Under the pieces are notes generated by a model. The model had not been told where the DNA came from. It saw only the letters and a list, made by a program, of their open reading frames with translations, and searched no databases. 64,000 nt of DNA from a bacterium (GTDB taxonomy: Bacteria; UBA8248). Of this stretch, positions 5,339 to 15,981 are shown in pieces; the stretch's first letter is position 1; every line of letters begins with the position of its first letter. A program made the translations under genes and the position numbers. The stretch covers positions 1,152,001-1,216,000 of the forward strand of contig CBDCRP010000003.1 in the NCBI GenBank assembly GCA_965221165.1. Reading direction: 5' to 3'.

Positions 5339-6880
5339 TCAAAGACGTGGTGTTCGCTTACCCTCGGCACCGAACAAAGGCTCGTGGGCCGCGGGTGAAG
5401 CCTGAGATACCTTCAGCAGGGGCAAGTTGTCAAACATCGTTCGCCGCTCGTCCAGAATCCTTTTGAAAGCCGGCCGCAGCGAACGGGGAAGCGGCATGCC
5501 TTTGGGAAGCTCCGCCTTCAAGGGGTCCAAATGCCGGCCCCGACGGATGATCCTGTAATCGAGGTGGGGGCCGGTAGACAAACCCGTGGAACCCACGTAG
5601 CCGATCACCTGGCCCTGGTGGACCCGCCTGCCCGTGCGAATTCCGCGCGCGTATCGATACAAGTGGAGATAGGCGGTTCTATAACCTCCCCCATGGCGTA
5701 GTTCAACCGTCTTGCCGGCCTGGCGTTTTCGGCTCGCCCGGGTGACGACTCCATCGGCGACCGCATACACGGGCGTACCCCGGGGTGCGGCATAGTCTAC
5801 GCCGAGGTGGGGGCGGTAGCGCTTGAGCAGGGGATGGAAGCGCCTCCACGAGAAACGCGAGCTGATCCGCGTATAGCGCAGCGGAGATCGCAAAAATGCG
5901 CGCCTCAAGGATTCGCCCTCGAAGTTATAATACGTGCCGCCTGCGTGCTCGAAATACACGGCGGTGTGTCGCCTCCTCCCCACGATGAACTCAGCCGCCA
6001 GAATCTTCTCGTAGCCGGCGAATTCCCCTTCGAAGCGCTTTCTCTCAACCAGGACTTCCACTTGGTCTCCGGTTTGTAAATCCTTATGAAAATCAATGAC
6101 ATACGCAAAAATATCGCTCAGCCTATTCGCGAGGACAGGAGCCCCCCCGCCATCGGAAATGGCCTGATGCAAGGAACTGTCGATGCGGGATTGAATGCGC
6201 ACGACATCTATGGAATAGGGTATGGCCTCTTTCGTGGCTTTCAACGCGCCGTTCGGCGTTCGCGCGATTCTGAGCCGATTTGTATTGTCGAGTTGAAGAA
6301 CGAATTCACGAAATTCGCCATCCTTTTTTTTTACCTCATATCGGCGACCCGCCCGAACACGCGAAAAAATACGTTTTTCACGGACGCTCTCCAAAACTTC
6401 CTGAATCTCAGAGCGCCTCACACCATGGGTTTTTAGCACGCCGATGACGGTGTCCGCTTTCGAGAATTTGCCCGCTTTCGTCGTGAATTCCTCCTCTTTC
6501 AGCGGGCTCTCGACCGGCGCGCTCACAACCGGTGGTCTCTCGACTCGGGGGCTCTCGACCGGCGCGCTATCGACTGGCGGGCTCTTGAGGGTTTTCTTCA
6601 AAGGATTTTCTTTGGGCTTCTCGCGCGCCTGATTCCGAGGTGCCCGGGCGAGTTCGTGCTGCGTCGTATTCTTGCGCGCCTTTTCGGCTTCACGCGCATC
6701 CGGTCGCGCAACGTAGTTATCAGATGGGTCGGGAGAAATATATACGGAAGAACCAACGCCCGAGAACACGCCAAAGCCGAGCGCCAACGACACGCCAACT
6801 ACCCAGAACTTTACGGGACTCCCGGCAGATTTTAATTCGGAAATAAATTGCCTGGCGAAGCGCTCTAGCTTCCTGCGCAT
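5339..6880 (-). CDS. M23 family peptidoglycan endopeptidase (MepM-like) with N-terminal membrane anchor
   Basis: HLGVDYAAPRGTP, YLHL, STGPHLDY; hydrophobic segment near N-terminus; start probably ATG 6880. Confidence 0.9.
   Translation of the reverse strand: MRRKLERFARQFISELKSAGSPVKFWVVGVSLALGFGVFSGVGSSVYISPDPSDNYVARPDAREAEKARKNTTQHELARAPRNQAREKPKENPLKKTLKSPPVDSAPVESPRVERPPVVSAPVESPLKEEEFTTKAGKFSKADTVIGVLKTHGVRRSEIQEVLESVREKRIFSRVRAGRRYEVKKKDGEFREFVLQLDNTNRLRIARTPNGALKATKEAIPYSIDVVRIQSRIDSSLHQAISDGGGAPVLANRLSDIFAYVIDFHKDLQTGDQVEVLVERKRFEGEFAGYEKILAAEFIVGRRRHTAVYFEHAGGTYYNFEGESLRRAFLRSPLRYTRISSRFSWRRFHPLLKRYRPHLGVDYAAPRGTPVYAVADGVVTRASRKRQAGKTVELRHGGGYRTAYLHLYRYARGIRTGRRVHQGQVIGYVGSTGLSTGPHLDYRIIRRGRHLDPLKAELPKGMPLPRSLRPAFKRILDERRTMFDNLPLLKVSQASPAAHEPLFGAEGKRTPRL
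6501..6586 (-). repeat. Degenerate 15-nt tandem repeat encoding a Pro-rich linker in the M23 gene
   Basis: Encodes SPPVD-SAPVE-SPRVE-RPPVV-SAPVE-SP. Confidence 0.7.
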
Positions 6881-7258
6881 CGAAATTCCTTTCGAAATAC
6901 CGGGCGGATATCCCGTAAAGCAGGCAAGTCCAGCAAAAACTGCATCTTCCAATGGCGATGCCATTTTAACAGAGCTTCCCGATTTTTCAAATTTCCATAC
7001 CAAGCGCGGCCGCAGAAAATAGAATTCTCCCGGCGCGTTCATCGTTCACCATTTTTCGTATACCGGATATTCCCAAAAAGTGGGCCTTTTCAAAATATAC
7101 GCCGCCTCCACGCAGTTGCCCGCATTTGCGGGGCGAACGCGCCGCTCCATTTCCATATATTCCACGGCCCCGGCCCCTCCTGCGCCGGAGCGATGGCCGA
7201 GACGCGCCGCAAGCAAACGCTTCCTCTCGATGTGGGAGCCCTCATCCAGGAGAGTGAA

Positions 7259-8338
7259 ATGGGGCATCGCTTCATGTATCAAAATCTCATCGATGACGAG
7301 ACGGCCATCACCGCCACTTCGGTGGAAACGGGTTTCGTCGGCGCGGGCGTGCCACGCGTCGCCAACGCGGGCGGCTCGATGATATTCTCGGGCGCCTACG
7401 CCGGAGACGACAGGGAAGTCTACTCCGTGGAAATCGACGCCCCGGGTGATGTGGGAAGCGCTCGTTTCAAGTGGCGCAAGACCTCGACTTCGGCGGGTGG
7501 CTGGGAAGCCTCGAACATCCCCACCGCACTGAAAGACGTCGCCCTCGATGCAGGTGTGAAGGTCCGCTTCGCGGATGGAGCGAATTCACCCGCTTTCGCT
7601 TTGGGAGATCGTTGGCAGGCCACGGCGAATCGCTTTCACTCGCCAAGAAGAACCTACGATCTGGACCCCGGCACGAGGATGAGGAGCGCCTCCCCTCCCG
7701 AAGACCCCTGGTCGCTTGCCCTTGATTTCGGCGAGGAGAAATCTCCCGACGTATTCATCGCCCACCTCCACAACTTCACGCCAGAAACAAGTCTCAAGAT
7801 TCAGGCGAACTCAACTGCCGACTGGCGCGCGCCCGCGCTCGAGGAAGCGCTCGCCTGGAGAAGCCCCACGCTCGTCCATTATCTCACCACCACGCCCCGC
7901 CCGTATCGCTACTGGCGGCTTCTGGCGGAAGGCGGCGGCGCCAACCCGGATGCTTATCTGGAAATCTCGGAAATATATTTAGGCGGCTTTTTTGAGCCTG
8001 CCGATCATTTCTGGTTCGGAAACGTGGTGGGAGAAGAATCCTTCGAGGAAACAGGCCGCGCGGAGAACAGGGCGGACCGTCTGGTGCTCCTGAACCGCGC
8101 TCGCACGGCCACCCTCCCCTATCAGCGCATCTCCGGTGAGCAGCGCGGCGAATTCCTCGCCATGTACCGGGCGGTGAAGGACATTCAGGCAGGGCGGGCC
8201 AAACCGCTATTCGTTCATCTGGACGTGGATGACCCCGCCTCGCTCATTCTCGCCAACCTCATGGGCGATTTTTTGCCGCGCCAGACGGGGCCGGATGATT
8301 TCTCCTTCGAGCTTCAGCTCAAGGAGAGACTCTCATGA
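7259..8338 (+). CDS. Phage distal-tail (Dit)-like protein with inserted beta-sandwich/discoidin-like domains
   Basis: CAGGAG RBS then ATG 7259; YRYWRL...NPDAYLEISEIYLG motif recalled from siphophage tail-tip proteins; first gene of tail cluster. Confidence 0.6.
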   Translation: MGHRFMYQNLIDDETAITATSVETGFVGAGVPRVANAGGSMIFSGAYAGDDREVYSVEIDAPGDVGSARFKWRKTSTSAGGWEASNIPTALKDVALDAGVKVRFADGANSPAFALGDRWQATANRFHSPRRTYDLDPGTRMRSASPPEDPWSLALDFGEEKSPDVFIAHLHNFTPETSLKIQANSTADWRAPALEEALAWRSPTLVHYLTTTPRPYRYWRLLAEGGGANPDAYLEISEIYLGGFFEPADHFWFGNVVGEESFEETGRAENRADRLVLLNRARTATLPYQRISGEQRGEFLAMYRAVKDIQAGRAKPLFVHLDVDDPASLILANLMGDFLPRQTGPDDFSFELQLKERLS

Positions 8339-8868
8339 GACGGGCCACGGACCATGCCATCGCGGATATCGCCGAACATGCGGGCAAAAACGCTTTCGTC
8401 ATCTATCACCTCTCCACCGCCGGCGGAAAGCGCGTGTTTTGCGGAAAGCAGGTACCCGATTCGCTGATCGGGCAAGGCGGAAAAATCTACTTCCTCGATG
8501 GCGCCCGGATTCTCGACGGCTCACTCCTGCTGGGAGAAGGAGCCGAAGTGCTCCTCGGCGCTCATGATTGGATAGAGGATGGCGGACGCTTCTCCCTCGG
8601 CGCGTTTCAGGGCCCCTCCGCTCTCGAAGCATTCAGGCAAAAAGAACTCTCCGGCCTTACGATATTCATCAACAACAACTCCGATATGGACGGCCACCCG
8701 CGTATGAGCCGCATCCTCGCGACGGAACCGCTCGTGGGCGGGAGGGTGGACGTCCGCGTCGGGTTTTCGGGGCAAACCATAGCCGATGTTCTTTCGATCG
8801 CGAGTTTCACGGTTCGCCGAATCATCGAGCGCATCGACCTGGTCACGATTGAATGCGAGGGAAACTAG
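8335..8868 (+). CDS. Phage tail-tip protein, resembling the N-terminal part of a baseplate hub
   Basis: ATGA overlap with upstream gene; LTIFINN...LVGGRVDVRVG pattern; in frame with next ORF. Confidence 0.5.
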   Translation: MRRATDHAIADIAEHAGKNAFVIYHLSTAGGKRVFCGKQVPDSLIGQGGKIYFLDGARILDGSLLLGEGAEVLLGAHDWIEDGGRFSLGAFQGPSALEAFRQKELSGLTIFINNNSDMDGHPRMSRILATEPLVGGRVDVRVGFSGQTIADVLSIASFTVRRIIERIDLVTIECEGN

Positions 8869-10080
8869 ATGGCCGACCTGACGACGGACCGGCTCTCGGA
8901 TTCATTTCAGATAGGGCGCGCCTCGAGATACGCCGCTCCTGAGTTCGAAGACCAGAGCCTCCCCATCATCTACGGGAATTTAACCATCCCCTCGCGTGAG
9001 AATTCGGGTGTCTACGCGCTCCCGAAAATCGACACCACAGGCGACGGCCTCTACTGCGTGGCCGGGCATGAAATATCAGGCGGCGTCACGTTGTTTGATG
9101 ACGATGGCCGCATCGAGCCGGATGACTATGCGCTGGAACTCGCCCGCAACTATCTGGGCAAGGGGGTCATCGCCACCGCCGTCTTTTCCGCCCCGCCCAA
9201 GGGGAGAGTAACCGCCGTATGCAAGGGCAAGATGGACGCTGCGGGCGCGCTCATCGAAAACCCCGCCGCAATCATTTATGACCTGATGACGAGCGTCTGG
9301 GGTTTCAGCGAACAGGACATCGACATGCAGGCCCTCTCACGCGCGGCGGCCTGCGCGAACGCTCTCGCCTACCGGGCGGGCGGAATACTCATGGACGATC
9401 ATGCGCCCGCCGACGTTCTCACCGCGCTTTTGGGCGATTTTCTCGCGCGATACGAAATCGACCCGTTCGGTCGCCTGGGAGTTCGCATCGCCGGGGAGGA
9501 ATCTTCCGGGGTTCTTCCGAAAAAGGTTCTGCCCCGCTTCGGCCAATGGCGCATCGAGGCGGAGATGGCGCGCGACACGGTCATCAACCAGGTTCCGGCG
9601 CTCTACGCGAGGGACTACGTAAGCGCGCGGCACATGAAGCACGATGATGGCGAGACTACAAAAAACACGTCCTCCCAAAGGCTCTATGGCGTCAGGATGC
9701 CTCCGCAAAGCCCGCTCAGGCTCGAATGGGTCCGGCGCGAGAGCGTGGCCGCCACGATTCAATCGCGCATCGTGGAACGCTATCACCAACCCACCCGCAT
9801 GCTCACCATCGAGGACAACACCCTGAGAGCACTCGAGGTCGAACCGGACGACTACGTCGCGTTCAGCGTGCCCTGGATGCGCTCGGAAAACCTCGAACCC
9901 CTCGTGAATCAAATCGGGGAAGTGATTGAGGTGAACTACGACCTGAGTGAACAAAACATGGAGTTCAAAATCCGGGATACCGGCTTTTTCCTGACATCCT
10001 CCCCTCTTCTGGATGGGACCAGAACACTCGAAGGCGGCCGGCTCCTGGGTGCCGAGCGCGACGCCGCCACCTACGCGTAA
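8869..10080 (+). CDS. Phage baseplate hub / tail tip (Tal-like) protein
   Basis: LPIIYG, IENPAAIIYDL, SQRLYG, LEVEPDDYV patterns typical of siphophage hub proteins. Confidence 0.65.
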   Translation: MADLTTDRLSDSFQIGRASRYAAPEFEDQSLPIIYGNLTIPSRENSGVYALPKIDTTGDGLYCVAGHEISGGVTLFDDDGRIEPDDYALELARNYLGKGVIATAVFSAPPKGRVTAVCKGKMDAAGALIENPAAIIYDLMTSVWGFSEQDIDMQALSRAAACANALAYRAGGILMDDHAPADVLTALLGDFLARYEIDPFGRLGVRIAGEESSGVLPKKVLPRFGQWRIEAEMARDTVINQVPALYARDYVSARHMKHDDGETTKNTSSQRLYGVRMPPQSPLRLEWVRRESVAATIQSRIVERYHQPTRMLTIEDNTLRALEVEPDDYVAFSVPWMRSENLEPLVNQIGEVIEVNYDLSEQNMEFKIRDTGFFLTSSPLLDGTRTLEGGRLLGAERDAATYA

Positions 10081-10091
10081 AGGAGAAAAAA

Positions 10092-11033
10092 ATGCCCATC
10101 GGCGCTGATCTGTCCGCCCGCTACACCGAGGAAGCCCTCGGCGGCAACCATCCGACGAAAGCCCGCGTCATCGACCGCCTGGCCCTCGCCGCCCTGTTTC
10201 AGGACGGAAAAATCAGGGCCAACAGACAGCCCATCGAATGCGCGGGCAGGCTCGACTACGTGAACGCCACCACCCTGGCCCTCAAACCGACGCTCAACTC
10301 CGCCTATTATCCCGCCGTCGCTAATCCCGTGGCGGGCCGCCATGTACCCTTCATCGACGGGGCGTCGGGCGACGTCTATTACGAGGATTTGCCTTGGGAG
10401 GGGGTTAGCATAACGAACGCGGACCTCGTGGCGAACGAATCCTATGCGGTATTCGTCTACGATGATGGGGGCGCGCTCAAACTCGAATTCGAGGCCACGG
10501 GTAACTGGGCGTTCGACCCCGCCACGGGTCTTGCGCACAAAACGGACGATGTGAGCCGCACCCTCGTCGGCATCGCGAGAACGGACGCTACATCCCAATT
10601 CGTTCTCGCGAACGACGTGTACGTCAGGAGTTTTTGGAACAAGGCGGAATACGCCGCCCAATCCAAAGGCGCGCTCGCCACTACCACTTCCACGAACTGG
10701 GCCTCTATCACCACGCACGAGATATTGATGTGGCCGGGCCACGATGTCGTGCGCCAGGAAGCAGGCGGACAGGGCTGGGTGAATTCAACGAGCAGACCAG
10801 GGCTACTGGGCCTGGACATGGATCTCGCCCTGTTCAACGGGTCGGGGCAAGCCTATCCGCAGGTCGAAATCATCGGTTCATCCAGCAACGAAAAAGACAA
10901 TTTCGGGATGGTGAAAACACAAATATACACCGAGGCGCTCGGCGAGGTTCACTCTACGTTCGTCTTTCGCGTGCCCCAAGCGACCATCCTGAGCGTTGGC
11001 GATTATCTCTTCCAAAGCGTCGTTTTGATTTAG
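10092..11033 (+). CDS. Phage tail fibre / receptor-binding protein
   Basis: AAGGAG RBS; N-term YTEEALGGNHPTK; GRLDYVNATTLAL...YAVFVYD...TGLAHKTDDVSRTLVG domain recalled from proteobacterial phage fibres. Confidence 0.65.
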   Translation: MPIGADLSARYTEEALGGNHPTKARVIDRLALAALFQDGKIRANRQPIECAGRLDYVNATTLALKPTLNSAYYPAVANPVAGRHVPFIDGASGDVYYEDLPWEGVSITNADLVANESYAVFVYDDGGALKLEFEATGNWAFDPATGLAHKTDDVSRTLVGIARTDATSQFVLANDVYVRSFWNKAEYAAQSKGALATTTSTNWASITTHEILMWPGHDVVRQEAGGQGWVNSTSRPGLLGLDMDLALFNGSGQAYPQVEIIGSSSNEKDNFGMVKTQIYTEALGEVHSTFVFRVPQATILSVGDYLFQSVVLI

Positions 11034-11042
11034 GAGACCGAA

Positions 11043-11744
11043 ATGGAAATGGAAGTGACGAAAGCGATCGGCCCGCATTTTCGCGGTGAACTCGAAGCGG
11101 CCGGGCTTGCGCACCTATACCTGGGGGCAGCGCACCGACTGGAGGCGAACATGATCCCCGACGCCGCCTGGCGGCCCAAGCCCGGCGAGGCGGAATCGGC
11201 CCGTCCCGAAATCCAAGGACCCGGGCTGGATTTGTGGATCATCAACGTGGCCGATTCGACCACCGAAGCGCAGCGAGACGCCATTCTCGCCGCTCATGAT
11301 GCGCATGCGCCCGATGGCGTCGCGCAAATCCACCGGGACCAGGCGAAAGAGAAACTCCATTTGTTGCTCAACGGCGCCAAGGCGCGCATTGTGGGTGTTC
11401 CGGTAAGCGCTCTGGGCGGCAAGCTGGCCGAGTATGAGGAAAAAGCCAAGCTCATCGACGCCTGGGCGCAGGATTCCGACCCGGACTCGGACAAGCTCAC
11501 CAAACCGGGGTTCCTGCTCGTCAAAAACCGAAAAGACGCCTACCCGACACGCGACGCGACGGGCCAAAGCGTGGTGGATGAGTGGACGACCCTGAGGGCG
11601 GCTCTCCTCGGCAAGCTCGCCTCTCTCGTGAAAATCTACGACGAGAGCGTGCGTGACACCCAGGATGCGAGCATCACCACGAGCGTAGCGACCCTCGATG
11701 CGAAGCTCGCAGAAGCCGCCTCCTCTTTCGACGCCGTGCGCTGA
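11043..11744 (+). CDS. Tail fibre assembly chaperone-like protein
   Basis: KAIGPHFRGELEAAGL...QRDAILAAHDAHAP and AEYEEKA helical region; directly follows fibre gene. Confidence 0.55.
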   Translation: MEMEVTKAIGPHFRGELEAAGLAHLYLGAAHRLEANMIPDAAWRPKPGEAESARPEIQGPGLDLWIINVADSTTEAQRDAILAAHDAHAPDGVAQIHRDQAKEKLHLLLNGAKARIVGVPVSALGGKLAEYEEKAKLIDAWAQDSDPDSDKLTKPGFLLVKNRKDAYPTRDATGQSVVDEWTTLRAALLGKLASLVKIYDESVRDTQDASITTSVATLDAKLAEAASSFDAVR

Positions 11745-12127
11745 TGGCCTCCGAAGCAAACGGGAAAGGGCTCCAGATTTTCCTGTCCATCCTGAGCATC
11801 GCCGGCCTCGGGGTCGCCGCCTACACCCCGCTCTACAACCAAATCGTAAACGTGGAAACGCGTTTGGCGGCCCACATGGGAGAGCGTGGCCACCCCTGGC
11901 TTCTGGAGAAAAACGCGGGCGCGCGCGTTCGCTTCCAGGAGGTGGAGACCCAGTTCCGTGAGGCGAAGACGATCGCCGATCTCAAATTCCGTGAACTCAA
12001 GGGAATTTCCGCCAAAAAAACGCGCGAGGACACGCAAACCTTTGCGCAAATACTGCGCCGTCTGCGCGAAGTCGAAATCGCGCTCGCCAAACTCGACGAG
12101 CGCTTGAACAAGGAGCGTCAACCATGA
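11744..12127 (+). CDS. Small membrane protein with coiled-coil, holin-like
   Basis: N-terminal TM IFLSILSIAGLGVAAY then charged heptad region; TGATG coupling; position after fibre genes. Confidence 0.45.
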   Translation: MASEANGKGLQIFLSILSIAGLGVAAYTPLYNQIVNVETRLAAHMGERGHPWLLEKNAGARVRFQEVETQFREAKTIADLKFRELKGISAKKTREDTQTFAQILRRLREVEIALAKLDERLNKERQP

Positions 12128-12246
12128 TTCCCCATCTTCTCGCAGCGCTTTTCTCGGTCGCCGCCGTCGTGTGCGCCATTGCGGCCATCGAGCCGCGTCT
12201 CATCACGAACCATCTGTGGCACTTCATCAACCCCTGGGCGGATTAG
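12124..12246 (+). CDS. 40-aa hydrophobic peptide (possible lysis accessory), absent from ORF track
   Basis: AAGGAG RBS, ATGA overlap; MIPHLLAALFSVAAVVCAIAAIEPRLITNHLWHFINPWAD. Confidence 0.5.
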   Translation: MIPHLLAALFSVAAVVCAIAAIEPRLITNHLWHFINPWAD

Positions 12247-12405
12247 AACGATCGGGCATGTCGCGCCTCTCCAAAACCGAGTTGGCGTGGGAAAACTCCT
12301 CGCCTTCGAGCCGTTCTTGAACCTGCATGACCCGGAAGAATCGAGTTCCAAAGGAAGCGATGAGGCGCGTCGCATTCAGCATCTTATTCAGGAATGGGAG
12401 ATTCC

Positions 12406-14085
12406 ATGCCGGAGCACACCTATAAAATCTCGGTGACAAAGAGAATAGACTTGCACTCTGGAAACAGCCTCAAAACACTTGCCCGGTTCACCAAAACGGC
12501 GGGCCAGGCGCGAACCGCCACGGAACAACTGAATGCCGAAACCCGCGAGTCCCGCGATGCGCTTAAAAAATCGAGCCGCGCCTTCATAGAATCCTCGAAA
12601 AAACTCGAAAAGGTCGGCGACTCGTTCATGGACGCAGCCGACGGGATAAGCACCCTGGGAAAGAGCGCGGAACAGGCCGGTTCCCAACTCGACTCCGGTC
12701 CGCTCGCCAAAGGCCTGAGCGACATTCAAAAGAAAGCCACGGCACTGCCCGCCTCTTTCGAGATCGCCGGAAGGGTGATGGATGACTTCGCAAGAGCGAG
12801 CGAGGAATCGCTTGCCCGGTTTTTCTCACGCGCCCTCTCCGGCAAAATCGCGGATGCCAAGGATCTGTTCAGCGACCTGAAAAACCACGCTATCAACATG
12901 GTGCGGGATGCCGCCGTCGAGATGGCCAGCACGCAATTCATCCAACCGGCGGTGGGCGCTCTCAAGAAGCTGGGCGTCGATTTGCTGGGTGACGTGGGTG
13001 AGGGTCTGTTCAAGGTGCTCGGCTTCGCCAAAGGCGGTCTGGTGAAAAAACCGACTCTGGGCCTGATCGGCGAGGCCGGGCCGGAACTCGTGGTGCCGCT
13101 GGCGAAAATCGGCGGCGAGGCGGGACTTTTGCGGCTTTTCAAATCCGTCTCCGAGATCGAGGCGGCGAATCGCCTGGGGGGCACGGAGGTCGCCACCACG
13201 CTGGGCGCAAAGGCGAGCGGCGAACTGGCCGCGCGGATCGCAGCCGCAAAGGCGGCGGCGTCCCTGCAAATCGTTTTTTCAGCGCTCGATTTCCTGAGGG
13301 GCCCGAAAACCCTGAAGAGAGGGGCGAATCTGGGCATTAACGTCGCCGGCGCCATCCCGGCGCTATCGGGCGCCACGGGCCTCGCCGCCTTCGGGCCGGC
13401 GGCAGGCGCTTTTTTGCTCACGGACGTGTTGTTCAACAAAGGAGGCGCCATCAAACAGGCGCTTTCTTTCCTGGGCATCAAGGGCCTCATCAGCGATTCC
13501 ACGCCCTTCACCAGGGGAATAGGGAATCTCGCACAGGCGGCCGAACTCTATCTGGCGCTCAGGAACTTCCGCACAACCGGCGTGGCGGATGAACCGATAA
13601 ACCTGTCGATTCCAAAAGCGGTCTACGAGGGCCGGATGAGCGTGGACGGTATTTTACTGAGGACTGCCGGATCTACGTTTCAGCGCATTCAACGAGCAGC
13701 GGGAAGAACCGGCATCTCGCCCCAGGAAGGGGTGCGCCGGTATTTCGGCAAGGAGCTTCACGCCGCCTACCTGAATGCGCTTCCCGTCTTCGAGGGCGAC
13801 GCGGCGGGGCGTTTCGTCAAGCGCTCTGCTCTCAGGCTCGTGGGCGAAGCGGGACCCGAGCACATCATGAACGTGAACCACCCCCAATCGATCGATTTCT
13901 TTCAGCGCGGCGTGCAGCCCATCATCCGCGACGCGATACGAGAAGAACTGGGAGAGCGCGGAGGCGACACGCATATCTACCATATACATATCGAGGGAAA
14001 CCTGAGCGACAACCGCACGCTCGAGAAACTCTCGCGCAAACTGGAGGACATCAACAAGCGCCGCCGCCGCTACGGAGGGGCTTGA
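12406..14085 (+). CDS. Phage tail tape measure protein (short, 559 aa)
   Basis: Ala/Gly-rich helical sequence; FAKGGLVKKPTLGLIGEAGPELVVPL and a second VGEAGPE motif; C-terminal HIYHIHIEG strand. Confidence 0.75.
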   Translation: MPEHTYKISVTKRIDLHSGNSLKTLARFTKTAGQARTATEQLNAETRESRDALKKSSRAFIESSKKLEKVGDSFMDAADGISTLGKSAEQAGSQLDSGPLAKGLSDIQKKATALPASFEIAGRVMDDFARASEESLARFFSRALSGKIADAKDLFSDLKNHAINMVRDAAVEMASTQFIQPAVGALKKLGVDLLGDVGEGLFKVLGFAKGGLVKKPTLGLIGEAGPELVVPLAKIGGEAGLLRLFKSVSEIEAANRLGGTEVATTLGAKASGELAARIAAAKAAASLQIVFSALDFLRGPKTLKRGANLGINVAGAIPALSGATGLAAFGPAAGAFLLTDVLFNKGGAIKQALSFLGIKGLISDSTPFTRGIGNLAQAAELYLALRNFRTTGVADEPINLSIPKAVYEGRMSVDGILLRTAGSTFQRIQRAAGRTGISPQEGVRRYFGKELHAAYLNALPVFEGDAAGRFVKRSALRLVGEAGPEHIMNVNHPQSIDFFQRGVQPIIRDAIREELGERGGDTHIYHIHIEGNLSDNRTLEKLSRKLEDINKRRRRYGGA

Positions 14086-14590
14086 TAACAAAGGAGGCCG
14101 GATGTTTCATGCTTCTATACCTCCTTGGGAATACGGTGTCTTCCTGGCGTGCTTCACCGGGAGATCCCTGAAAGTTTCATGCTTTCGCCTGTTTTGGTGA
14201 AGGCCATTTTTTCCGGGTGGATTCAGACCGGCCGCCGCCCGAAGAGTCTCCTGAGACGCACGAGCGATGAGGAGCGATTCTCTCGCCGATAACCTGAAAC
14301 GGATACGAAGCGGCTCATTTCACGCGGCACGCGAGACGTGAAAGAACCTGAAAGATGAGTTCTCGAAAAGATGGGGAAAAGACGATATGCAGAGGGTTCA
14401 TTCAGAAGCAAGGAACAATAGGTCGTGTGGAGAGGGATGGCTTAAAACATCGCCGACTTCACTCGCGCCATTTCGCGCCGGGGAAAGGCGCATGAAGCCT
14501 GCAATGCACTCAAACGATGGGGTGATGAGGCGTGATATCCACGTAAACCAACCATCAAATATACCCACGAAAAAAAAATATTTTCGCGCG

Positions 14591-14716
14591 TGCATTTCCC
14601 GGTTTTTCCCGGTATTTACCGGCATTTCATCGCATTTGCCAGTCTTGTTTTTCCGGTATTTTCCGCTTTTTTTTCGCTATTTTTCACCTTTTTCCACTAT
14701 TTTTTACTTTTTCTCG
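14591..14716. repeat. About 12 degenerate ~10-bp units with helically phased T-tracts
   Basis: tgcatttccc/ggtttttccc/ggtatttacc/ggcatttcat/cgcatttgcc then tgtttttccg/gtattttccg/cttttttttcg/ctatttttca/cctttttcca/ctatttttta/ctttttctcg. Confidence 0.8.
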
Positions 14717-14718
14717 CA

Positions 14719-15981
14719 TCATGTAAGCGGGTCGAGCCCCAGCACCGCGCGGCGCACGAGTTCCATCCCGTAGATAGGCGCGCGCGACTGCACGAACTGC
14801 TCGTTGCCCCCGAAGCTCGATGAGAAGGTGAACACGTCCCCTCCTGTGTCCAGCGCCATGTGTGTGGCACCCAGCGCCGGCGCGCGGCGGGAATTTTCCG
14901 GCTCGATGTTCTCGGGCGGATTGGGGCCGAAGACGGCGAGACCCATGTCGGCGTCCGACTCCTCGCGCACCCTCCGGGCGAGCGTCCTGGTGAAATCTTG
15001 AGGCCCTTCGTTCTCATCCACCCCGAACATGCGCGCCAACTCCTCCGCGTGAAGGCCGATGACGCCGCGTTTCAAGAATTGCACGCGCTCGGGCCAGGCG
15101 TTCAGCCTCTGAATCAAGGCTCCTCCGGTGTTCGACTCGACGATTGCAATGGTCTTGCCGCTCTGGGCCAGCACGCGCCCCAGCGTCTCCTCGAGCGTCG
15201 CGTTTCCCGTGGCGTAAACGGCCGAGCCCAGAATCTCGCGCACCTTGACCTCGAGCCCCGCAATCATGTTATCCGCTTCTTCGATATTCTGCGCGCGCGC
15301 GGTGATGCGCACGTCCACCTGCCCGGGGTGGGCGAGCACGCCGATGCTCGGATTGATAGATTCGCGAAACAGGTCCGATATCATCTCATCGACGCGCGAT
15401 TCGCCGAGGCCGCAGGTTTTGAGAACCTTCGTCCGGATGACCTCGCCCAGGTCGAATTTCTCCTGCAGGATGGGCACCGCGCATTGGGTGATGATGTAGC
15501 GCATCTCGTGGGGCACGCCCGGGCTCACGATGATGACCCCTTTTTCGTCCTCGCACATGAAGCAAGGCGCCGTTCCGCGCGGGTTTTCGATGGGCGTGGC
15601 CCCGGCGGGAATATAGGCCTGCTTTTTGTTGTTATCGCTCATGTGAAAACCGCGGCGACTGAAATAGGCGCTGATGTAATCATACAAATCCTGGCGAAAC
15701 TCGAGTTCAACGCCCATCACCTTGGCGCAGGCCCCTCTCGTCAAATCATCCACCGTGGGGCCGAGCCCGCCCGTGGTGATGACCACCTGGGAGCGCTCGT
15801 GCGCCTGTTTGATGACACCCGCGATTCTATCCAGATTGTCGCCGACGGTGGTCTTGAAATACATGTTGACGCCGATCGACTTGAGCTGGTCTGCAATGAA
15901 GGCGCTGTTGGTGTCGATGAGGTCGCCGAGCAGCATCTCGGTGCCGATGGCGACGATTTCGCCGCGAACAGGCTCTGCCAT
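14719..15981 (-). CDS. cinA: CinA family protein (COG1058/MocF domain plus degenerate PncC domain)
   Basis: IGTEMLLGDLIDTNS, VGDN, TGGLGPTVDDLT, PGVPHEM, ESNTGG. Confidence 0.9.
   Translation of the reverse strand: MAEPVRGEIVAIGTEMLLGDLIDTNSAFIADQLKSIGVNMYFKTTVGDNLDRIAGVIKQAHERSQVVITTGGLGPTVDDLTRGACAKVMGVELEFRQDLYDYISAYFSRRGFHMSDNNKKQAYIPAGATPIENPRGTAPCFMCEDEKGVIIVSPGVPHEMRYIITQCAVPILQEKFDLGEVIRTKVLKTCGLGESRVDEMISDLFRESINPSIGVLAHPGQVDVRITARAQNIEEADNMIAGLEVKVREILGSAVYATGNATLEETLGRVLAQSGKTIAIVESNTGGALIQRLNAWPERVQFLKRGVIGLHAEELARMFGVDENEGPQDFTRTLARRVREESDADMGLAVFGPNPPENIEPENSRRAPALGATHMALDTGGDVFTFSSSFGGNEQFVQSRAPIYGMELVRRAVLGLDPLT

Follow-up and report, generated by a model that had tools for sequence, protein, structure and literature searches.

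Gene transfer agents (GTAs) are portrayed in a review as remnant-phage-like systems that hold only packaging and structural genes, tend to be encoded at multiple loci hundreds of kb apart and have several origins (PMC11841831). According to the same review, their resemblance to dead prophages and their dispersal over several loci make them hard to find bioinformatically (PMC11841831). Here we describe a block of eight genes at positions 7259-14085 of a 64,000-nt stretch of DNA (the window; contig CBDCRP010000003.1, positions 1,152,001 to 1,216,000 of the forward strand) from the genome of a bacterium of the lineage UBA8248 (assembly GCA_965221165.1). We put the probability at roughly 0.7 that this block encodes the tail tip and the tape measure of a siphovirus-like head-and-tail particle, known from its genes alone, that has been domesticated, is inherited vertically and is maintained by its host. 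The closest known kind of system is, on our best reading of the sequences, a GTA; production of the particle and transfer of DNA by it are predictions.

Two further kinds of described particle are relevant for comparison. VSH-1 of Brachyspira hyodysenteriae is said to be a prophage-like GTA with a divided genome whose structural genes lie at different chromosomal locations; we take its phage ancestry to be unrelated to that of the element described here. F-type tailocins (F-pyocins, monocin) resemble the window block in being host-retained flexible tails with tape measure, distal tail protein (Dit), hub and fibres, but tailocins lack capsid, portal and terminase. As a functional class, GTAs are expected to package heterogeneous host DNA in amounts below the coding length of the element itself, to deliver it to recipients and to have a small terminase without a DNA-binding domain. 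To our knowledge only a handful of GTA lineages have been recognised, and in the literature searched we found nothing in print on a GTA in Nitrospinae, Nitrospinota or Tectomicrobia. The closest database homologues carry the label 'Nitrospinae bacterium', remoter ones 'Candidatus Tectomicrobia' or 'Nitrospinaceae'.

All genes of the block are on the plus strand, co-oriented and translationally coupled, with AGGAG-type ribosome binding sites and ATGA/TGATG overlaps. They are referred to as O1 (7259-8338; 359 amino acids, aa), O2 (8335-8868; 177 aa), O3 (8869-10080; 403 aa), O4 (10092-11033; 313 aa), O5 (11043-11744; 233 aa), O6 (11744-12127; 127 aa), O6b (12124-12246; 40 aa, coupled to O6 by an ATGA overlap) and O8 (12394-14085; 563 aa); the start of O1 at 7259 agrees with the 359-aa form of the protein in the databases. 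A first-pass annotation of the sequence had already reported eight co-oriented open reading frames (ORFs) with ribosome binding sites and coupling overlaps, and this description was confirmed apart from its seventh member. The 85-aa ORF at 12179-12436 was rejected as a gene; its frame is not conserved among relatives and is read as spurious. The real seventh gene is the 40-aa O6b, which is 85-97.5% identical in six of six other species. The proposed position between mepM-like and cinA genes was borne out by Pfam, which identified the flanking genes, both on the minus strand, as encoding an M23 peptidase (5339-7042) and CinA (14719-15981).

Scans with Pfam and PHROG covered eight ORFs (O1-O6, the 85-aa ORF and O8), with O6b outside these scans. 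No Pfam family was found for any of the eight, and their PHROG matches were weak except for the tape-measure matches of O8. The hub and Dit resemblances noted in the first-pass annotation were recovered by structure searches, for O3 and O1 respectively. O3 is identified as a baseplate hub or tail-associated protein of the siphophage type from its modelled fold and its gene position. Its AlphaFold2 (AF2) model (mean predicted local distance difference test score, pLDDT, 65.7) gave 15 Foldseek matches in the PDB at E<=0.001, and those listed were siphophage tail-tip, tail or baseplate structures and the virion of the GTA of Rhodobacter capsulatus (RcGTA). The best were siphophage tail-tip hub chains (T5 7zqp_b with E 2.3e-7, DT57C, JBD30, Chi, lambda and T1), and RcGTA chain 6tba_8A matched with E 1.9e-4. 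The position of O3 after O1 and O2 is conserved. O1 is accepted as a Dit-like protein with an inserted domain resembling CBM32/F5-8-type-C (sugar-binding-like) domains, mainly because its gene follows the tape measure gene in two relatives (G027 and G024; genomes and loci are given G and L numbers) and precedes the hub gene everywhere. The model of O1 (pLDDT 77) had no Foldseek match in the PDB at E<=0.001; a wider search with VIA-align retrieved the T5 Dit protein pb9 (4jmq_A, Z 8.5) and CBM32 domains (Z 8-8.8), and residues ~240-359 matched RcGTA 6tba_6B (Z 7.5), T1 9l9p_H (Z 7.3) and lambda gpM 8iyk_M (Z 7.3). O1 follows the tape measure directly in G027 and G024 and adjoins O3 in 27 of 28 viral contigs. 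The nearest ESM Atlas clusters of O1 and O4 are mostly viral (0.97 and 0.96), values below the recognition mark and used as leads only. Monocin tip and diffocin baseplate chains were among the weak fold matches.

Judged by sequence and position, O2 is a conserved protein of the tail tip without a known fold, located in every case between O1 and O3; it had no Pfam, PHROG or PDB match, and homologues lie between O1 and O3 in G024, G026, G048 and G055 as well as in three viral contigs. O4 is a putative receptor-binding protein of the tail-fibre type. A profile search with O4 returned 1872 relatives at E<=1e-3 among 1.84 billion representatives, which have in common a modular central domain (residues ~100-240). 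O4 itself matched no PHROG or Pfam family; when 40 relatives were scanned, 2-3 of them each matched many PHROG 'tail fiber protein' families (best E 2.7e-110), in agreement with the fibre resemblance noted initially. O5 is a conserved protein (64-83% identical across the genus) with no Pfam, PHROG or PDB match, and no tool supports the label 'fibre chaperone'. From hydropathy, O6 is a predicted membrane protein with one N-terminal hydrophobic helix (residues ~8-30) and O6b a small predicted membrane protein, also with one hydrophobic helix. A holin-like or spanin-like role of O6 is conceivable; for 'holin-like', a term of the first-pass annotation, the one predicted helix is the basis. O8, with two GEAGPE-containing segments, is the probable tape measure, a protein class for which a rule of about 1.5 Å per residue holds; by this rule 563 aa would correspond to a tail of about 80-90 nm. 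A tape-measure likeness, too, had been noted before; PHROG tape-measure families matched O8 weakly (E 5.4e-7 and 4.5e-6) and its position in relatives agrees, while Pfam gave no match. A homologue in G055 lies between the tube gene and O2/O3 (27% identity, E 1.9e-24), another in G024 directly upstream of O1, and the C-terminus of O8 resembles an 830-aa tape-measure-like protein beside the hub of G032 (E 3e-6). The canonical position is thus held in G055 and G024, whereas in this genus O8 instead follows O6b. Searches of PDB sequences with O8 alone and with profiles of O2, O4 and O5 yielded nothing below E 0.07.

Neither the eight scanned ORFs (7193-14085) nor the two flanking genes matched families of capsid, portal, terminase, tube or integrase; ARAGORN found no tRNA gene in the whole window, and a direct-repeat search found no convincing att-like flanking repeat. 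The best repeat pair spanning most of the block (7678-7706 and 14266-14294; 29 nt, 72% identity) has one copy inside O1. The GC content of the block (0.58-0.62) is close to that of the genome (0.587). The first-pass annotation had described the locus in just these terms, as free of such genes and repeats and host-like in composition.

It had also put forward a host-maintained module whose tube and head genes possibly lie elsewhere. Head proteins from relatives with full clusters (G026, G027 and G032) were used as queries against the window's own genome (G000), and capsid, portal, terminase and tube genes were indeed found at other loci. A two-locus picture did not hold, since the element consists of three blocks among host genes: A and B on contig C2 and C, the block of the window, on C3. 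Block A (C2:876612-879687) comprises the portal gene and a large terminase in the form of an ATPase gene and a nuclease gene. Block B (C2:862166-868159) comprises genes for a protease-major-capsid fusion, a 142-aa protein, a 236-aa protein, a gp10-like protein, a ~175-aa protein, the tube and a 130-aa protein; three genes between capsid and tube are of the connector or completion type. The capsid fusion matched PF25209 (E 8e-46) and the PHROG major head and protease families, the portal phrog_10963 (E 1.3e-45), the tail tube PF18906, the gp10-like connector/completion protein PF04883 and the terminase ATPase, which is accompanied by the nuclease part, GpA_ATPase (PF05876, E 8.8e-18). PF05876 and PF25209 have one match each in the genome, and PF05065, PF04860, PF03354, PF03237 and PF10145 have none; thus, among the families tested there is exactly one possible set of head and tube partners for the tail tip. 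A distance of 0.26-2.06 Mb separates O3 from the capsid gene on the main contig of G019 and in the seven genomes that consist of a single contig. The host segment between blocks A and B encodes a CdaA-like cyclase, a deaminase, a dehydrogenase, two luciferase-like monooxygenases, UGSC and others, and cupin and CofE/C/D genes lie beyond block B. This layout on C2 is syntenic in seven of seven genus loci.

The terminase is encoded on the minus strand at C2:877985-879687 (L025:3986-5688) as a GpA-type ATPase of 352 aa and a nuclease part of 215 aa. The two genes are translationally coupled; they overlap in ATGA behind a GGAGG, variable sites change codon phase at the junction in five species, and G006, G019 and G022 have the same two-ORF layout. 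A single 'terminase' ORF of 376 aa was rejected and resolved into these two coupled genes. The 85 nt between the promoter motif described below and the ATPase start leave no room for a small terminase there, and the ORFs that precede the terminase in G027 and G032 are without a homologue in the window's genome. Real frames were separated from spurious ones by the ratio of non-synonymous to synonymous substitution rates (dN/dS) in all six frames against relatives. Six minus-strand ORFs at the head locus (366, 117, 294, 98, 154 and 74 aa) were rejected on this basis, with dN/dS ~1 at low dS; the selected frames over the two largest of them are plus-strand host genes, CdaA-like and CofE. Long spurious ORFs antisense to real genes occur in this GC-rich genome, for example an 884-aa ORF (C2:865658-868312, plus strand) opposite the capsid gene.

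The synteny, substitution and gene-tree checks that had been suggested at the outset came out in favour of a host-maintained module. Of the 22 other species of the genus, 20 have O3 as a single copy with an open frame, and the order O1-O8 between the same host genes at the mepM-cinA site was found in six of six genus loci fetched, the M23 gene itself being missing in three. Pairwise dN/dS values (Nei-Gojobori, window genome against six species) were 0.09-0.49 for O1-O8, and so not near 1, and 0.05-0.33 for the flanking host genes at similar dS. By gene they amounted to 0.24-0.28 (O1), 0.15-0.42 (O2), 0.22-0.29 (O3), 0.18-0.38 (O4), 0.20-0.39 (O5), 0.09-0.23 (O6) and 0.24-0.49 (O8). Open frames are kept at 69-93% protein identity and dS of up to ~1. 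Since the frames are open in the orthologues and dN/dS lies between 0.09 and 0.49, they are more than chance ORFs. The head and tube genes on C2 gave dN/dS values of 0.10-0.23 (capsid, portal, tube).

Hub, capsid and portal occur together in 29 of 42 genomes of the family and are all missing from eight; in the other five, which are assemblies of 270-540 contigs, matches are partial or broken. In two of the genomes without the element, G008 and G009, the host genes around all three sites are still in place (mepM-cinA, CofE or cupin-CdaA, and a 398-aa gene adjoining DUF520) and every block has been cleanly removed; a portal stub of 26 aa and a remnant of the terminase promoter persist in G009. 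A host tree of nine genomes, calculated with FastTree from seven host proteins, places G008 in one group with G019, G001 and G006 (support 1.000) and G009 outside it. Because the host tree places them apart, the two triple deletions are independent. The three groupings with good support in the host tree are also found in a tree calculated from 12 element proteins; the agreement of gene and species trees is incomplete in that the placement of G007 and G020 differs.

G048 and G055 belong to other genera of the family, and in each of them a stretch of ~17-23 kb contains the portal, capsid, tube and a tape-measure-like gene as well as O1/O2/O3. The portal adjoins the cluster of the block-B/C type in both, as does the terminase nuclease gene in G055, and the cluster of G055 has CdaA on one side and CofE/C/D on the other, the host genes that also enclose block B in the window genome. 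Related viruses point to a similar arrangement. In IMG/VR, 28 viral contigs carry a relative of O3 (26-34% identity), and four of these have homologues of block B 6-9 kb upstream of O1-O3 on the same strand. A search of 50,697 deposited phage genomes with O3 gave nothing at E<=1e-3, and no close homologue in a free phage was found in these searches; the best phage match of the capsid fusion was a protein of Microcystis phage Mae-JY22, 31.9% identical over 97% of its length. The gene orders suggest that blocks B and C were once one contiguous ancestral cluster, and we infer that it was in the ancestor of this genus that block C left the CdaA-CofE site. It might have been re-inserted through a circular intermediate, which we propose because this would fit the changed gene order with the tape measure now last.

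The three blocks have a sequence motif in common. A tandem repeat GCATTTGC-N2-GCATTTGC was found upstream of O1, of the capsid gene and of the terminase ATPase gene. The copy in the window (GCAGTTGC-CC-GCATTTGC; 7112-7129, plus strand) has one mismatch to the consensus GCATTTGCCCGCATTTGC and is followed after 26 nt by a -10-like hexamer TATATT (7156-7161, plus strand), so that the two may form a promoter. The hexamers TATATT and TAGATT are present at matching spacing (26-28 nt) at the capsid and terminase promoters, and the 3' end of the motif lies 63-85 nt upstream of the start codon of the first long ORF at each block. The motif precedes O1 in seven of seven genus species and is present in every genus locus that reaches the promoter sites of the blocks. 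The clusters of G026, G027 and G032 lack it when up to 3 mismatches are allowed. Together with a -10-like hexamer, a variant of the repeat, GAATTTCC x2, precedes O1 and the putative tape-measure region of G048 (L075:11135 and L075:14334, minus strand), which suggests that motif and regulator co-evolved with the element. At <=3 mismatches the window's genome has 61 motif sites, compared with 2.8 predicted from base composition. We consider it plausible that the blocks are co-regulated through the motif.

The same motif is part of a repeated intergenic element of ~190 nt, which consists of GCATTTGC x2, ~75 nt of GC-rich sequence, 4-6 tandem A-rich units of ~11 nt (GTGAAAAA type) and often a final hairpin. 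Arrays of these A-rich repeats follow 23 of the 61 motif sites and number 43 genome-wide; examples (L042-L046) are at C3:1663777, C3:1087275, C2:1117928, C3:464573 and C3:163209. Five copies had no Rfam match. The element could be a family of small RNAs or a mobile repeat. Around the block of the window itself (6900-14800) Rfam gave no match either, and the numbers of sigma-70 and terminator sites in the region did not exceed shuffle expectation. A terminator-like hairpin followed by a T run (14181-14204, plus strand), 96 nt after O8, is weak because the terminator-like sites of the region are no more numerous than expected after shuffling.

The site of block C varies between species. One to three tandem copies of a gene for a protein of 182-217 aa, with a signal peptide and a lipobox-like start, lie between O6b and O8 in four of seven species: one copy each in G007 (L017:12664-13317) and G019 (L015:13266-13862), and three each in G006 and G001 (L016:13052-14821 and L019:12795-14582). 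Species with these extra genes have a further motif promoter upstream of O8. The genes are absent in the window genome, G005 and G020, where the block is intact. They may have an immunity or exclusion function, an idea that we take by analogy from Llp of phage T5. The M23 peptidase gene is missing at the block site in G001, G006 and G019 (loci L015, L016 and L019), the block and the other flanks being kept. Only G007 has two tandem 309-aa paralogues between O8 and cinA (L017:15604-17622), in a stretch that is A+T-rich by eye.

RcGTA, from an alphaproteobacterium, is a set of phage-derived genes for packaging and structure that lacks those for replication or lysogeny, lies at several loci and is vertically inherited and under host control, and the element resembles it in these features (PMC11841831). 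In the block neighbourhoods scanned, only phage-derived packaging and structural genes were found; Pfam gave no integrase, replication or lysogeny family among these neighbours, and the genes beside all three blocks are of the host type (M23 peptidase, CinA, CofC/D/E, cupin, CdaA-like DAC, deaminase, dehydrogenase, luciferase-like monooxygenases and DUF520). The element is encoded at multiple loci, with blocks on C2 and C3, and the trees and substitution rates point to vertical inheritance and purifying selection. The models of O3 and O1 match chains of the RcGTA virion structure 6tba, a likeness at the fold level only. Homology to the head-tail cluster of RcGTA was not found. RcGTA uses an HK97-type capsid, whereas the capsid here is a PF25209 protease fusion and the terminase is of the GpA type (PF05876); PF05065, PF04860, PF03237 and PF03354 are without a match in the window's genome, and presumably no sequence family is common to RcGTA and this element. 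Further differences are that the core head-tail cluster is here in three blocks with host genes between them, that the terminase is two genes, that the host lineage is labelled 'Nitrospinae' or 'Tectomicrobia' and that the element is known by its genes only. The uncultivated siphophages of IMG/VR and, for the capsid, Mae-JY22 are similar in their hub, Dit-like, connector and capsid families and in gene order, but at 26-34% identity and as contiguous viral genomes, whereas the blocks hold fixed host positions and have no detectable non-structural phage genes adjoining them. A functional temperate prophage does not fit the three blocks, with no tRNA, no flanking repeat and no integrase family among the neighbours.

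Several observations weigh against a domesticated particle of this kind or against the strength of the case for it. The co-occurrence counts overstate the evidence since related genomes are not independent, the portal match of G015 is in three pieces, and the element tree pairs G007 with G020 (1.000), unlike the host tree. No terminase was detected beside the portal of G048 with the queries used. Constraint is looser in some genes, namely the gp10-like gene (0.35-0.51), the 142-aa gene (0.30-0.57) and O8 (up to 0.49). Frame breaks occur in O1 and O4 of G005; they are probably assembly errors, because the host gene cinA is broken there, too. With regard to protein identities, the Z scores of 7.3-8.5 for the Dit or tail-type fold of O1 are middling, in a range that is common for unrelated models according to the search tool, the fold matches of O3 have low TM-scores (0.2-0.33), and the case for O8 as tape measure is weak (a PHROG E value of ~5e-7, nothing in Pfam and no similarity to the PhageMin_Tail protein of G027). 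Among the sequencing runs listed there was no RNA run with this stretch, a result that bears on expression in neither direction. As 23 of the 61 motif sites are in the repeated A-rich element, the motif may be part of a repeat family and not a regulator site. A terminase split into two genes is unusual and its activity is predicted only, and no small terminase, endolysin or head-tail adaptor was recognised.

How far do other explanations account for the data? The first-pass annotation had named a tailocin and a GTA side by side, and of these the GTA is now favoured. If the blocks made headless, flexible killing tails of the F type, with capsid, portal and terminase as unrelated leftovers, a complete, host-retained tail tip with tape measure would be accounted for, and the variable tandem lipoprotein genes beside the fibre genes of some species could provide immunity. 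A tail-only tailocin is nevertheless disfavoured, because the head and packaging genes have been conserved and lost in step with the tail-tip block: purifying selection on capsid, portal and both terminase genes is at least as strong as that on the tail genes (capsid/portal dN/dS 0.10-0.23), the terminase frames are kept, the head and packaging genes carry the same promoter motif, and they disappeared with the tail tip in G008, G009 and six further genomes of the family. We therefore regard headless tails as highly improbable. That the three blocks are inert fragments of an old prophage, persisting by chance and without function, is scarcely credible. The missing integrase and lysis cassette, the host genes that interrupt the cluster and the broken or partial copies in genus g2 (G023, G056 and G057) would agree with decay, but open frames in 20 of 22 genus species, dN/dS values like those of neighbouring host genes, conserved promoters and the all-or-none pattern in 37 of 42 genomes do not.

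A set of structural genes could also act only when a related phage infects, by supplying virion parts or poisoning them as a defence through mis-assembly or in the service of a satellite, and never form a particle of its own. Related uncultivated phages with O1-O3 and block-B homologues do exist, a regulator-dependent promoter could respond to infection, and small terminase and lysis genes were not found; the set does, however, look sufficient for a particle, with terminase, portal, a capsid and its protease, connectors, tube, tape measure and tip, and all parts are retained together although a decoy would need one or few, which makes such a helper or decoy improbable. All structural evidence for a domesticated GTA-like particle applies equally to a killer of the PBSX type, the heads of which package host DNA while the selected function is the killing of non-immune relatives. 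The tandem lipoprotein genes and the motif promoter before O8 would fit immunity or exclusion in such a system, but these genes are lacking in the window genome, G005 and G020 despite an intact block, and nothing in the data separates killing from transfer; we consider it unlikely that killing is what the particle is selected for. The preferred reading therefore remains a host-maintained head-and-tail particle of the GTA kind. A more specific version is tentative, and we would give it somewhat less than an even chance: an independently evolved, family-wide GTA lineage, its cluster in three blocks with a two-gene terminase, tied into one unit by a GCATTTGC x2 activator site that also drives about two dozen A-rich elements, and block C relocated via a circular intermediate.

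In a model of how a domesticated particle of this kind would work, one regulator that recognises GCATTTGC-N2-GCATTTGC would switch on all blocks. Capsids would assemble on the portal and be filled with DNA by the two-part terminase, and tails would polymerise with O8 at their core and carry the Dit-like O1, O2, the hub O3 and the O4/O5 fibre at their end. Release may be aided by O6 and O6b, and O4 together with the sugar-binding-like domain of O1 would attach the particle to its target cell. The cargo would be random host DNA and the outcome gene transfer, or the particle would mainly kill.

The host lineage is known mostly from metagenomes, and a strong signature of domestication was obtained here by comparison and without a culture: fixed host positions, purifying selection, separate blocks that are present all or none, two independent triple deletions and a common motif. 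The two-gene terminase is an oddity of interest for the biology of packaging motors. If particles are made, the motif would point to a regulator that binds it and that can be searched for directly, and the element would be a natural experiment on how dispersed a virion gene set can be and still function. A new group of phylum rank would then also be added to those with GTA-like exchange or with killing by particles.

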